Positions 41,524 through 61,075 of a stretch of 64,000 bases of DNA are shown piece by piece (the stretch's first letter is position 1; each line of letters begins with the position of its first letter). Made by a program: the position numbers and the translations under genes. The notes beneath the pieces are model-generated. The model did not search any database, was not told the origin of the DNA, and saw only the letters and a program-made list of their open reading frames with translations. The DNA comes from Eledone cirrhosa (Eukaryota), in contig OZ024761.1 of NCBI GenBank assembly GCA_964016885.1, positions 28,396,001 through 28,460,000 on the forward strand. The letters run 5' to 3'.

Positions 41524-41999
41524 ACTTTTCGTTGCATTGTTTACTGTCTCACTCGTTCCCCCTATTTATGTGTCCCAACGACTTTCTTTAGCCGTTGCTC
41601 ACACCAACCAGAGGTATATGGTCTTTAAAGCGAAGAAATACTAATGAAGGTTGGAAGATCACTGATGAAGGACTAAATTTATTCATATGTAACCCATTTG
41701 CAACCACGCAGCACGCCATGTTTTCATATATATATATATGTATACAAAGTTCATGGGCTGACCAAGATACTCTCATGGAATGACCAAACGAGGCTTACTT
41801 TTCAACATAGTCCCTGGAAAGAAACAATGCAGTTATTGATAAAAAGAATTGAAATTAATGCATGCAAGATTTCGCAGCACTAGCATCACTCCTTCATAGT
41901 CAGCCTATGGGCATTTCAGCCAACCTTTGTATGTGTGTGTGTGTATATATATATCACAATGATATTAATAAATGGAAACTATATTTAGAAAACCATATT

Positions 42000-42059
42000 T
42001 ATTCTATTATATATATTTCAAGGGTACCAAAGCTTTGGTACTTCTCATCAGATAAAATA
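42000..42059 (-). ncRNA. Hammerhead ribozyme, family A (intact core)
   Basis: tattttat-CTGATGA-gaagtaccaaagctttggtaccctt-GAAA-tatata-TA-atagaata. Confidence 0.8.
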
Positions 42060-42221
42060 CAGAGCTTGTTTTATAAATATTGACATATCCAGAAATGAGA
42101 TCTTAACGGTTCAAATTTTACCTGGATAAATATATAAATATCCCTTTGCTTATATATATATATATATATATATATTAATTCAAAATATTAATAAATATAG
42201 ACATTCAACATAATCAAAATA

Positions 42222-42284
42222 TATTTTATTATATATATTTTGGAGGTACTGTGCTGTTTTTTCAGTACGTCATCAGATAAAATA
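42222..42284 (-). ncRNA. Degenerate hammerhead (GAAA->AAAA) within an inverted-repeat element spanning 42174-42727
   Basis: tattttat-CTGATGA-cgtactg...cagtacctcc-AAAA-tatata-TA-ataaaata; the inverted partial copy at 42311-42336 retains GAAA. Confidence 0.6.
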
Positions 42285-42342
42285 TATAAATTGAAATGTG
42301 ACATACCTCAACAGTACATCCGAAATATATATAATAATATAA

Positions 42343-42666
42343 TTTCATTTCACGTCCGCTTTTTCCCTGCTTGCAAGGGTGGGATGGGAACTGATTTTTG
42401 GCTTGATTTCTACAGCTGGATGCCCTTCCTAACACCAACCTCATTTACAGTGAGTGCTGGGTGCTTTTTTGCCGTGGCGCCTCCACGACCACTTTGCAGT
42501 GGAATGATATGGACCCCAGTCCCTATCATCTACAGCTGAGTAAACTGGAGCAATGTGAAATAAAGTGCCTTGCTCAAGGAAACAACACATCACCCGGTCT
42601 GAGAATTGAACTCACAACCTTTCGATTGCAAGGCCAATGCTCTAACCACTAAGCCATGAGCCTCCA
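42343..42666 (-). mobile_element. SINE family 2
   Basis: Near-identical to 33266-33609. Confidence 0.9.
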
Positions 42667-43017
42667 TATAATAAAATATATTTTGATTAAGTTGAATGTC
42701 TATATTTATTAATATTTTGAATTAATAACTCCAGAAAACTCACTGTTGAGTGCTTCTAATCTATTGTAAAACTATAGTCATTGATTAATCAATGAACCTT
42801 GTTTAACTTTTGGTCATATATATATATATACAAAGTACATAGGCTGACCAAGATACTCTCATGGAATGACCAAACAAGGTTTATATGCTACATAGTCCTT
42901 GGAAAGAAACAATGCAGTTATTGATAAAAAGAGTTGAAATTAATATATGTAAGATTTCACAGCTCTCACATCACCCCTTCGTAACCAGCATCTGAACTTT
43001 TCAGCTAGCCCTTGTTT

Positions 43018-57000: not shown

Positions 57001-57195
57001 ACTGGATTGGCAGTATCGGTTACAGGGTCGGACACCATGCTTTGATGCATAGAGTTACGGCCCTTGCCATTCTGAGTTCAAATCCCGCCGAGGTTAACTT
57101 TGCCTTTCAACCTTACGGGGGTCGATAAAATAAAGTACCAGTAATGCACTGGAATAATTGCTGGCCTTCGTGCCAAAAGTAGAAACAATTATTAT
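57001..57195 (+). mobile_element. SINE family 1
   Basis: Family match; truncates the RLE relic. Confidence 0.9.
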
Positions 57196-57370
57196 TGGAG
57201 TTACAGGATATATATATATATATACCAACCAGCCTTGACCCCCATCATGTGGAGGTATGTGGCATAGTGGTAAATGTGTTGGACTTATGATCATAGTGTC
57301 GTGGGTTCAATTCCTGGACTGGGTAGTGTGTTGTGTTCTTGAGCAAAAATACTTCATTTCACATTGCTCC

Positions 57371-57575
57371 TCTCTTGTGACGATATGGAGAGGCTGGAGA
57401 GACAGACATAAAGTAAGCATGCTTTGATGGACATGTGATGTTAATGTGCATGAATGACAACAGAAACAGATTGGTGAGCTGAGAGGAAAAAACTAGATGT
57501 AATAGGAATCAAATGCAGTGTGCTAGAGAGAAGACTGCACTGGTATGGACATGTGAGATATATGAGTGATGATTA
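57371..57575 (+). mobile_element. Internal RTE fragment inserted in a CORE-like SINE
   Basis: Encodes LERRLHWYGHV; flanked by cacattgctcc/cacgttgctcc. Confidence 0.7.
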
Positions 57576-57770
57576 CACGTTGCTCCAGTATACTCAGCTG
57601 AAAATAAATACTAGCAATAGCTGTGATAGACTAGCATCCTGTCCAGAGAAGAGTATCGTACTCTCAATTCCTTTCTGGTATGGAAACCAGGATAAGTACC
57701 AGTCTGATGAATCTCTTGGTTTAACCCAAGTGAGAATGGACATGGATTTTTGGAGAGAGAATACAGCCAA

Positions 57771-58026
57771 TGCTGAAGCATGGAACAAACTACCTGCATC
57801 AGTTGTTAGCTGCCGAGACACTGCATCCTTTAAAACCTCCATGCTTCCTGAGATTTGCCACCACTACACCTAATGTTCCCCCCTCCTTACATATACACAC
57901 ATGTATATCATGACTCGTACACTATTTCACTTCCCTGACATTTGTATATTATTCTATGTACTATACATGCACCTTTGACGAGATGTAGTGCACCTGAGCA
58001 CTTTACACAATAATTTCATTATTATT
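57771..58026 (+). mobile_element. CR1/L2-group LINE 3' end
   Basis: AEAWNKLPASVVSCRDTASFKT; matches 23330-23635. Confidence 0.8.
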
Positions 58027-59459
58027 CGATAAAATAAAGTAGCAGTAATACACTGGGTAATTGCTGGCCTTGTGCCTAACGTAGAAACAATTATTATCTT
58101 TATTATATTTCATAAGCTAAGCTGCAAACTGCTGCAATATCTGGGACCTTCAAAAATCTGTGAAACATTCATAAGATTTAAAGGATAAATTATTGTCCAA
58201 AAAGATAATGGATGTTTTGTTTTCTTCACAGCCTTGCTACCAGGAAGGTGGCCAGTCTCAAAATTAAACTCGAAATTTGAAGAAAAAGAGCATACATACA
58301 TACACACATACATATATATACAGATATACATACATACAGACATACAAACTTACATACATAGACGTCATGTTGCATACCCTTATAAGACAAAATATATCCA
58401 CATATATATATATATATATATATATGTAATAGCATTCATGCATCTACATACATACATGTGTGTAGAAGTACGCATATTAACTGACATACATACCACCACC
58501 ATCTTCAGTTAATATATATATATATATATATATATATATATATATATATATATATATATATATATATATATATACATACATATATATATATATTCAGAAA
58601 TTCAATGCTGTCACATGGCAACTTTCAATAAAAATAGAAAGAGCAGGTGAGATATCCTGCAGTTTTATGCACACACACACACACATCTGCACATATATGT
58701 ATGTATATATATATATATATACACACATACACAAAAAAACATCTATATCTACATACATACACACATATATATATATATATATATACACACACAAACACAA
58801 AAAAACATCTATATATACATACATACATATACATATATATTTATATATATATATATATGTGTGTGTTTTTTGGTGGGTAGCAAAATGAATTATTTACAAT
58901 GTGTACTAGCTACAAAGTTATTTTGACTTTGCAAAAGAAATATAAAAATCCATTGTAACTAAAAGTTTTCAAACAAAAAATAACCACAATATTTTGGGTA
59001 CTACTACTACCACCAATACTACTATTACTACTGCTACTACTACAAATAACAATAATGATAATAAAAATAATAATGATGATGATGATGATGATGATGACAA
59101 CATCGTTAACAACAATAACATAGGTAATGTTATTTTTTGTGAAGGCAAGAATGAAAAAATTCATTCATCTCCTTAGAAACATGTCCAAATGTGAATATGG
59201 TATGTATACATACATATGCAGAATATATATATATATACATGCAAAGATCCATACATAAACATATGGATAGATAGACATCTATGTAAAAATTATATATATA
59301 ACTATGTGTGTGTGTATATATATATATATATATATATAGAGAGAGAGAGAGAGAGACAGAAACATACTTATATAAACGCATATGTGACATAGTTGTATGT
59401 TGTTAAAACCTATGTATTAATACTTTCATAAATATATTTACATAAACATAAGAGTTTAT

Positions 59460-61075
59460 AATAGATATATATACATACATACATATATTTGTATATATAT
59501 ATATATACATACATACATATATTTGTATATATATATATATATATACATATATTTGTATATATATATATATATATACATATATTTGTATATATATATATAT
59601 ACATATATTTGTATATATATATATATATACATATATATATATATATATATATATACATATATATATATATATATATATATATACATATATATATATATAT
59701 ATATATATATATACATATATATATATATATATATACATATATATATATATATATATATATACATATATATATACATATATATATACACATACATATACAT
59801 ATATATATATACATACATATACATATATATATATATACATACATATACATATATATATATATACATATATATATACATATATATATATATATATACATAT
59901 ATATATATATATACATATATATATACATATATATATATATATATACATATATATATATATATACATATATATATATACATATATATATATACATATATAT
60001 ATATATACATACATATACATATATACATATATATATATATACATACATATACATATACATATATATATACATATATATATATATACATTCATATATATAT
60101 ATATATATATATACATACATATATATATATATATATATATATATATATACATTCATATATATATATATATACATACATATATATACACATATATATATAT
60201 ACATATATATACGATATTAAACAAATGGAAACTATATTTATAAAACCATATTTATTTCATTATACATATTTCAGGGATACCATATTAAAAATATGGCATG
60301 CCTTCGTCAGATAAAATACAATATATAAGCAGTTTTATAAATAATTTTGACGTACCATAAATATAAGCGACCATTTGTTTAATATCGTATATCTACTCCA
60401 AAAACTTGTCGAGTGCTTTATATCGGTTATAAAATATGTACTTGTTGTAACCCAACAATTTTAAATAAAACTTTTGCATATATACATATGTATATATATA
60501 TATACATATATATATATATATATATATATACATATATATACATATATATATACATATATATACATATATATATACATATATATATATACATCCATATATA
60601 TATATACATCCATATATATATACATATATATATATATATACATATATATACATCCATATATATATATACATATATATATATATCCATATATATATACATA
60701 TATATATATATCCATATATATATACATACATATATATATATATACATATATATATACATACATATATATATATATATACATATATATATATACATATATA
60801 TATATATATCCATATATATATACATACATATATATATACATATATATATACATACATATATATATACATATATATATACATATATATATACATACATATA
60901 TATATATATACACATATATATATATATATATATACACATATATATATATATATACACACATATATATATACACACATATATATATATATATATATATATA
61001 TATATACATCCATATATATATATATATATATATATATATACATCCATATATATATACACACATATATATATATAA
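59460..61075. repeat. Long (TA)n/(TACA)n microsatellite tracts
   Basis: Simple sequence flanking the 60212-60475 insert. Confidence 0.95.
60253..60318 (-). ncRNA. Hammerhead ribozyme, diverged family A variant (intact core)
   Basis: tattttat-CTGACGA-aggcatgccatatttttaatatggtatccct-GAAA-tatgta-TA-atgaaata; stem II sequence differs from other copies but still pairs. Confidence 0.85.

Follow-up and report, generated by a model that had tools for sequence, protein, structure and literature searches.

Hammerhead-bearing insertions in TA microsatellites of Eledone cirrhosa as probable end modules of a Penelope-like retroelement

Introduction

Penelope-like elements (PLEs) of metazoans carry minimal type I hammerheads in their pseudo-LTRs (pLTRs), and both the covariation among families of these motifs and the stability of their helix III as an intermolecular duplex are already in print (Cervera and De la Pena 2014, PMC4209133). 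For the cleavage of such hammerheads as dimers, Lunse et al. are cited. Inverted pLTR copies with a tail and head-to-head junctions are known from PLEs (Arkhipova et al. 2013, PMC3846280), as are inverted truncated copies with a tail and a bias toward TA targets (Craig et al. 2021, PMC8557442). For the green anole Poseidon element PAc, two internal start sites with a tail between them, extension of both strands, and an AT-rich target have been described, and the start sites used in vitro had no homology to the target (Frangieh et al. 2024, PMC11167929). How PLEs integrate is still only partly worked out.

Here, we describe a family of hammerhead-bearing insertions in a 64,000-nt stretch of the Eledone cirrhosa genome (hereafter, the window). 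Like the hammerheads of PMC4209133, these motifs have a type I topology, the CUGANGA/GAAA/UH core, a long helix II, and a palindromic helix III suited to dimers; likewise, they are mostly dispersed single motifs of truncated elements, with many families per genome and compensatory changes. Unlike the published motifs, they have a helix I of 8 bp instead of 4–5 and a loop 3 of 6 nt instead of 0–4, and no ORF is linked to them here. The unpaired (bulged) base after position 9 that is typical of PLE hammerheads is absent, as is G10.1–C11.1 from the intact copies; instead, a 3-bp base is followed by a conserved 1×1 pyrimidine–pyrimidine mismatch.

Results

Six minimal type I hammerhead motifs were found in the window. 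In all of them, the 5′ strand of stem I, TATTTTAT, is followed by CTGANGA, at positions 120(+), 42284(−), 42059(−), 45119(−), 51304(+), and 60318(−); positions 1–32 hold an additional inverted half, cut off by the window edge. A strict hammerhead descriptor gave five matches in the window, four from this family and an unrelated one at 46362, and no match in any of 300 block shuffles. The repeats are real minimal hammerhead-ribozyme motifs on short insertions inside TA microsatellites, with the following parts:

50803–51407: longest insertion, 605 bp; stub 50803–50866 (−) head-to-head with a 5′-truncated sense copy 50867–51407 (+); TA runs on both sides
50803–50866 (−): the stub of this insertion, an inverted tail
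51304–51363 (+): minimal type I hammerhead with intact core and a cut predicted after 51355; stem II with 3-bp base, U×C mismatch, and 7–8 bp distal stem; helix III palindrome ATATATAT
51356–51407 (+): 3′ arm between the predicted cut and the short end, which is site 1 (+52)
60212–60476: second-subfamily insertion; sense 60212 to about 60370 (−), partner 60371–60476 (+); TA runs on both sides
60371–60476 (+): this partner, repeating the end of the 3′ arm, then an 87-nt tail to site 2 (+136)
60253–60318 (−): minimal type I hammerhead, core intact (CTGACGA...GAAA); stem II with 3-bp base, C×C mismatch, and 10-bp distal stem; loop 3 TATGTA
41955–42149: insertion of 195 bp; sense 41955 to about 42128 (−) and an inverted tail stub of ~20 nt (+), in itself a weak match (E 0.098); TA on both sides
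42000–42059 (−): hammerhead, core intact, 1-nt deletion at the stem II base
45015–45180 (−): 5′-truncated sense copy without an inverted partner; 5′ (TA)n, 3′ degenerate TA/CA run
45059–45119 (−): broken hammerhead, G12 to A, A×A in the stem II base
42176–42815: third-subfamily insertion; sense 42176 to about 42309 (−), partner 42310–42342 and 42666–42815 (+), split by a later SINE-like repeat
42222–42284 (−): hammerhead with G12 to A, lacking by deletion the 5′ strand of its stem II base
42725–42815, on the (+) partner: third-subfamily tail, 91 nt, site 2 at +145
1–220: fourth subfamily; 3′ arm to 220, head-to-head inverted partner from ~69 to the window start
120–190 (+): intact hammerhead, loop 3 TGCGCA, 12-bp distal stem
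46354–46450 (+): hammerhead of an unrelated family, for comparison only

According to the original prediction, the copies keep stem I and the core. The 5′ strand of stem I was indeed retained in all six, but the full core (CUGANGA, GAAA, and UH, helices I and II being ordered as in type I and helix I having 8 bp) was intact in only four; in the copies at 45119 and 42284 (hammerheads 45059–45119 and 42222–42284), a change of G12 to A has turned GAAA into AAAA. Together with two deletions in the stem II base, these two changes represent a decay that affects half of the genomic copies.

Two local Rfam scans matched no hammerhead family, and no hammerhead appeared among the 150 of 364 matches listed for the whole window, almost all of which were microsatellite matches to miRNA models; the ribozyme form seen here is missed by Rfam. 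The output of the repeat finder was also dominated by microsatellites. A U3–A8 variant match at 50683 falls within an inverted-repeat element and was regarded as a chance occurrence. When metagenome and viral contigs were scanned for the pattern, 26 loci matched (25 metagenomic and one viral); these were likewise judged to be chance, since loop 3 was palindromic in none of them and none had a TA run.

Next to their hammerheads, the four main copies share a common 3′ arm through TAATATC, and the first TA run after the cut lies at 53, 68, 52, and 49 nt. At 45119, the copy with the 68-nt distance, a degenerate ATAC/AT run begins at about 52. The corresponding distances in two relatives (120 and 42284) are 54 and 38 nt. 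Altogether, five of the six copies end 38–54 nt past the predicted cut at a TA run (P = 1.5e-6, given that 4.8% of random non-TA positions have their first TA run between +38 and +60), which bears out the noted ends about 50 nt past the cleavage site at (TA)n. Since TA runs flank both sides of all five fully visible insertions, they probably constitute a preferred target that supplies the primer. The proposal of microsatellite-primed integration is thus supported as regards a TA-flanked target; the fixed position of the end would, however, be best explained if reverse transcription, primed from the nicked TA target, started internally at defined positions of the element RNA, as described for PAc (PMC11167929), with a second such position ~90 nt further on.

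The microhomology at the short end amounts to 3–5 nt of TA. What the sense copy and the RNA-derived continuation have in common is TATAT (5 nt) for subfamily 60318 and ATA (3 nt) for subfamily 42284; for subfamily 51304, read joints and a loose end at 51412 suggest 5 nt. Such matches speak for true microsatellite priming, in which nicked (TA)n would pair with a UA-rich patch of the RNA and this pairing, not protein recognition alone, would set the start. However, they are weak evidence because the element is about 75–80% A+T, and the three subfamilies are homologous. In addition, UA-richer stretches such as loop 3 are not used as ends, and the anole PLE needs no homology, its start being non-homologous to the target in contrast to the short TA microhomology seen here (PMC11167929). 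We consider a start set by pairing to be rather unlikely; it would refine a PLE origin of the insertions, and the two are compatible.

The inverted partners, the tail, and the PLE context are additions to the original prediction. Five of the six insertions contain a truncated inverted partner arranged head-to-head with the sense copy, and in four of them the partner outruns the end of the sense copy by ~90 nt, a segment that we call the tail (87 and 91 nt where measurable). All four visible partners end at the far site (site 2) in a TA run, with strict polarity. The 3′ end of the sense copy is therefore not the sole fixed end, as had been assumed, for a second one lies ~90 nt further on. Public reads and contigs from two organisms contain the 3′ arm joined to the tail sequence, which identifies the tail as the continuation of the family. 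Read joints connected 51412 to 50863–50867 on opposite strands, with 9–25 read starts each in run X21, and loose read ends matched the start of the tail; run X5, with only three short contigs of <90% identity, was left out. A motif common to the far side of three insertions was initially a candidate for the conserved 5′ end of a discrete element, but the reads and the 42666–42815 stretch show that it is the inverted tail.

As in the PLE units of PMC3846280 and PMC8557442, the partner lies head-to-head at the 5′ end, only one of the two ends is extended, 5′ truncation is heavy, and target-site duplications are masked by TA repeats. In contrast to the published tails of 30–40 bp, the tail here measures 87–91 nt, and it is found on the inverted partner in four of four visible cases. 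This tail length, the strict polarity, and the 3–5 nt TA microhomology at the short end are the small extras of the present family.

The 5′ ends of the insertions are variable (lengths 166–605 bp), read depth drops steeply 5′ of the hammerhead, as with 5′ truncation, and the copy number of the family is very high. The last feature is shared with metazoan non-LTR retrozymes (PMC7229834; bioRxiv 10.64898/2026.07.22.740005), non-coding elements in which hammerhead-processed monomers of 200–400 nt from tandem arrays would circularise and be reinserted by a borrowed reverse transcriptase. A type I hammerhead, low GC, and the lack of an ORF in the copies also fit a retrozyme, and since PLE pLTRs are the proposed origin of retrozymes, the retrozyme and PLE readings overlap. 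Retrozymes, however, form head-to-tail arrays of unit-length monomers, whereas the present insertions are truncated stumps with variable 5′ ends and inverted partners; no head-to-tail monomer array with a hammerhead in each unit was found within the window, and among the joints listed (15 of 24), none led from a 3′ end to a unit start in the same orientation. Moreover, retrozymes have canonical hammerheads, and minimal variants are assigned to PLEs (PMC7229834). A retrozyme thus appears highly unlikely, and we favor a PLE.

All stem II arms quoted in the original prediction were found in the window, as were its hexamers TATATA, TATGTA, and TGCGCA. The proposed wholesale replacement of stem II did not stand: full replacement was seen only in the copy at 120, the other differences being compensatory and G·U changes. 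One stem II type is common to three of the main four copies (91–93% identity over the hammerhead and 3′ arm), and the stems of 60318 and 42284 are homologues with point compensations, giving four independent stem types and not six. Stem II pairs in register, with the compensatory and G·U changes flanking the conserved pyrimidine mismatch. Position 10.1–11.1 is A–U in two copies and G·U in three, and its 5′ side is deleted in one.

Loop 3/helix III contains self-complementary 8-mers in all six copies, one of them with two G·U pairs; the self-complementary hexamers described earlier are accordingly all present, although TATGTA is self-complementary only through these two G·U pairs. A hairpin is impossible for the hexamers (+4.7 kcal/mol), and an intermolecular duplex has −2.2 to −10.5 kcal/mol in the three intact copies. 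Conserved pairing without conserved sequence had been attributed to selection on RNA structure. The covariation between subfamilies supports such selection in master elements, but not in the dispersed genomic copies, half of which have decayed.

Could these patterns have arisen at the DNA level, with TA runs growing from the AT-rich end of the element after insertion and stem II covarying through palindrome correction? AT-rich ends can seed microsatellites, and the stem II loop of 42059 is now a perfect palindrome. Yet the 45119 copy breaks off at an arbitrary 5′ point straight into (TA)n, and palindrome correction would erase both the pyrimidine mismatch and the G·U pairs. The latter are strand-biased: by hand count, the ribozyme strand has six internal G·U changes and zero A·C in register. 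Furthermore, the 13-nt hammerhead core brackets the stems in the correct register. This origin is extremely improbable, and selection on the RNA of master elements is the better supported reading.

Discussion

The insertions are very probably short, 5′-truncated copies of the pLTR end module of an endonuclease-bearing PLE that would integrate by two-site priming. None of the 150 complex frames of at least 55 aa scanned with Pfam in the window matched a PLE reverse transcriptase or GIY-YIG domain; the scan gave only zf-RVT at 21241–21456 and weak or repeat-driven matches, none near the hammerheads. No PLE ORF is visible in three frames of the longest copy, and all copies are at most 640 bp. As for the clade, Neptune and Naiad PLEs favor (TA)n targets (PMC8557442), and the insertions show the same microsatellite bias. 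Naiads are without canonical hammerheads, in contrast to the full hammerheads present here, and the stem I–core motifs of the family had no match in the Naiad/Chlamys/Hydra consensus supplement (PMC8557442), in which line breaks could mask one. Neptune is the likelier clade.

The closest mechanistic parallel is PAc (PMC11167929), which likewise has fixed genomic ends downstream of the hammerhead cut, two of them bounding a tail, and an AT-rich target. Its main start, however, lies 85–92 nt past the cut (26 subtracted from 111–118), compared with ends at ~+50 and ~+140 here, and its ORF starts inside the hammerhead, whereas the present tail shows non-triplet indels between subfamilies.

We propose that a PLE reverse transcriptase/GIY-YIG protein encoded elsewhere would nick the TA run, with the nicked DNA serving as the primer, and that copying would begin at either of two fixed positions within the element RNA, ~50 and ~140 nt downstream of the cut. 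The two target strands would be primed at different positions, one near and one far; both cDNAs would stop early and join, leaving a sense stump and an inverted, tail-bearing stump. In transcripts of master copies arranged in tandem, the hammerhead is predicted to cleave only as a dimer, via its palindromic loop 3. Selection would preserve pairing in these tandem masters, while dispersed copies would decay after insertion.

This model could be extended to a polarised twin priming, in which the nicked TA strands would each anneal via a few UA bases and be extended from two RNA sites ~90 nt apart, one per protein subunit, and the hammerheads would form a distinct subclass. We consider the extension unlikely as a whole. 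If it were true, every insertion would consist of a sense copy with a short end and, facing it, an inverted copy with a long tail, and unrelated families of one genome would share a structural subclass defined by a 3-bp base, a pyrimidine mismatch, and a palindromic loop of 6 nt; with very many copies, the geometry of PLE integration could then be read from the genome alone.

The pLTR, inverted copies, tails, TA-target bias, and palindromic-loop hammerheads with covariation have all been described for PLEs, and the value of the present family lies in the material that it offers. Because its copy number is very high, its two ends are sharp, its tail is long, and several of its subfamilies are compensated, it would permit genome-scale tests of two-site priming, of primer microhomology, and of the structural limits of the hammerhead.

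The unrelated hammerhead at 46354–46450 has a like architecture, with a 3-bp base, a U×C mismatch, and a self-complementary 6-nt loop 3, and a TA run lies 57 nt past its cut. The adjacent copies 42059 and 42284 belong to different subfamilies, being 68% identical, with (TA)n between them.

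Results

Hammerhead motif and stem II covariation

The hammerhead family of the original prediction proved real and correctly spotted: a strict hammerhead descriptor gave five matches in the window, four in the family and one, at 46362, in a motif unrelated to it; the 300 block shuffles yielded no match. Rfam hammerhead models found no match in local scans. Six insertions belong to the family:

120 (+), hammerhead-family copy
42284 (-), hammerhead-family copy
42059 (-), hammerhead-family copy
45119 (-), hammerhead-family copy
51304 (+), hammerhead-family copy
60318 (-), hammerhead-family copy

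All six run from TATTTTAT-CTGANGA through a long stem II to (G/A)AAA, followed by a 6-nt loop, TA and the strand closing an 8-bp stem I, the layout of a type I hammerhead with predicted cleavage after AUA. The core, described as kept in the copies, was intact in four of the six, but G12 was changed to A in 45119 and 42284; stem II base deletions were present in 42059 and 42284. Helix III was computed to be stable solely as a duplex between two motifs.

The unrelated hammerhead (46300-46500, +) has stem I AGACATAT, loop 3 CGATTG, a 62-nt stem II region and, as in the main family, a 3-bp base with a pyrimidine mismatch. It ends at (TA)n 57 nt after the cut, and a 40-nt hairpin lies immediately upstream.

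Family stem II begins at its outer end with a 3-bp base, which is followed by a 1x1 mismatch between pyrimidines (C×U, C×C, U×C and C×C) and then by 6-12 bp of distal stem. Since 42059, 45119 and 51304 form one subfamily (91-93% identical), there are four independent stem types. Across 11 positions, the 51304 and 60318 types were separated by three double changes and two G·U changes with no broken pair, and the 42284 type added two further double changes in the distal stem. Wholesale replacement of stem II, as originally proposed, applied only to the 120 type; the other types differed by double and G·U changes. Covariation between subfamilies was upheld: in a pairing alignment of seven rows, including the unrelated 46354 motif, both sides had changed in 14 of 17 pairs, a result reached by none of 500 shuffles, with kinship ignored. 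In this alignment, where two rows were out of register and all five stem I double changes stemmed from the unrelated row, 93.3% of cells were paired, against at most 58% in slid controls. By hand count, internal changes to G·U had arisen six times independently on the ribozyme strand, where A·C in register was absent; this favours pairing at the RNA level over a DNA palindrome.

Public sequencing reads show that the stem variants are family-wide. Among the 40 of 136 variants listed, C occupied the stem II mismatch in 98% of depth in run X1, where A occupied 10.1 in 54%, the TATGTA loop made up 17%, and stem I switched between two paired forms; in run X21 both the 5' and 3' stem II arms of the 60318 type were dominant. 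RAD reads over-represent some loci in such shares. Summed depth in X1, which is not a copy number, reached maxima of 2.5e6 in the 3' arm and 3.9e5 in the tail and stood at ~1e4-5e4 along most of the 5' body, a profile showing that the family is very abundant and 5'-truncated.

Ends at TA runs

The distance from the predicted cut to the first TA run was 38, 54, 53, 68, 52 and 49 nt in the six copies. The predicted fixed 3' end against (TA)n was confirmed, five of six lying at +38 to +60 (P = 1.5e-6; background, 4.8%). TA runs flanked both sides of all five fully visible insertions, among them 45119, whose 5' truncation falls at an arbitrary position; this points to the TA run as the insertion target and not an outgrowth of the element. 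At the near site, the fixed end ~50 nt after the cut, the continuation opens with 3-5 TA-like bases common to the flank. Microsatellite priming as first proposed still stands in the form of target-primed synthesis, to which a few base pairs may contribute.

A 47-bp non-repetitive island (45226-45272) lies within the long TA run beside 45119; it had no second match anywhere in the window and could be a stub of some other element.

Inverted partners and the tail

An inverted, head-to-head partner, absent from the original prediction, accompanied five of the six insertions. All hammerhead-bearing sense copies ended at the near site, and all four visible partners at the far site, ~140 nt after the cut. 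The partner at 60371-60476 repeats the sense copy's final 22 nt before running on to +136. In that at 42310-42815, which a later SINE-like repeat interrupts, 56 of the first 57 nt agree with its sense copy, and the partner extends to +145. Those at 50803-50866 and ~42128-42149 hold the distal portion of the extension alone (the latter stub a weak match by itself, E 0.098), and that at 1-69 runs off the window edge. The extension is the ~90-nt tail between the two sites:

60388-60474, tail
42725-42815, tail
50803-50866, tail

Joints in X1, X4 and X21 connected 51412 with 50863-50867 on opposite strands, and in X21 the loose end seen most often behind 51403 matched the start of the extension, confirming that the extension is the family's own continuation.

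In every tail a distal hairpin is built around a TTG/CAA core, and the pairs on either side of that core vary among subfamilies; the two full tails also have a common ACTC...GAGTGCT block. The hairpin and block are candidate protein-binding or start-site signals.

Probable relation to Penelope-like elements

Published work describes similar arrangements. For Naiad and Neptune elements, Craig et al. 2021 (PMC8557442) give an inverted truncated copy, a tail of 30-40 bp and a bias toward microsatellites; Arkhipova et al. 2013 (PMC3846280) found head-to-head junctions and inverted pseudo-LTRs whose tail measures 31 bp, and explain them by self-priming. In vitro, a Penelope-like element (PLE) protein nicks both strands of AT-rich DNA, synthesis starts at two internal RNA sites that correspond to the genomic ends and delimit the tail, and insertion proceeds without need for hammerhead cleavage (Frangieh et al. 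2024, PMC11167929). PMC7229834 and bioRxiv 10.64898/2026.07.22.740005 served for comparison with retrozymes, and the review PMC6765202 cites dimer cleavage.

No PLE ORF was found in the window frames scanned or the longest copy's frames inspected, so membership rests on architecture, from which we infer that the family is a PLE. A PLE protein encoded elsewhere would nick TA runs and prime at two fixed RNA sites, and two truncated cDNAs would be joined head-to-head. The hammerhead would be maintained in tandem master copies, where dimerisation is possible, and dispersed copies would decay. The family is a further member of an already known kind of element; no such family was described in literature on octopus hammerheads, among the matches listed, or on Penelope and Neptune in octopus, and the portion consulted of an octopus repeat annotation (PMC13282606) mentions neither ribozymes nor such a family.

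Setting of the window

The window is AT-rich and microsatellite-dense and reads as animal, non-coding DNA; its short interspersed repeats presumably resemble octopod ones. Other repeats and fragments were as follows:

33282-33608, ~325-bp SINE-like repeat
42345-42665, ~325-bp SINE-like repeat
49872-50198, ~325-bp SINE-like repeat
62035-62359, ~325-bp SINE-like repeat
40885-41082, ~195-bp repeat
41740-41936, ~195-bp repeat
42827-43023, ~195-bp repeat
47107-47556 (-), LINE reverse transcriptase C-terminus-like fragment
57478-57870 (+), LINE reverse transcriptase C-terminus-like fragment
21241-21456 (-), LINE reverse transcriptase C-terminus-like fragment
25400-27210, tandem array, 52-bp unit, embedded in TA repeats
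35465-36124, tandem array, 108-bp unit

The three LINE-like fragments were not linked to the hammerheads. The one at 21241-21456 matched zf-RVT (Pfam, E 1.4e-5); the other two, which we take to be RTE-like, had no match in a Pfam search. The four full SINE-like copies are 92-95% identical, and that at 42345, with an apparent 9-nt duplication, is inserted into an inverted partner near the partner's hammerhead cut site. The three ~195-bp copies lie inside 2.2 kb (83-84% identical), the middle one being MITE-like, with short inverted ends and TA-rich runs on either side. A ~235-bp MITE-like element with long terminal inverted repeats (50536-50772) adjoins the 51304 insertion.
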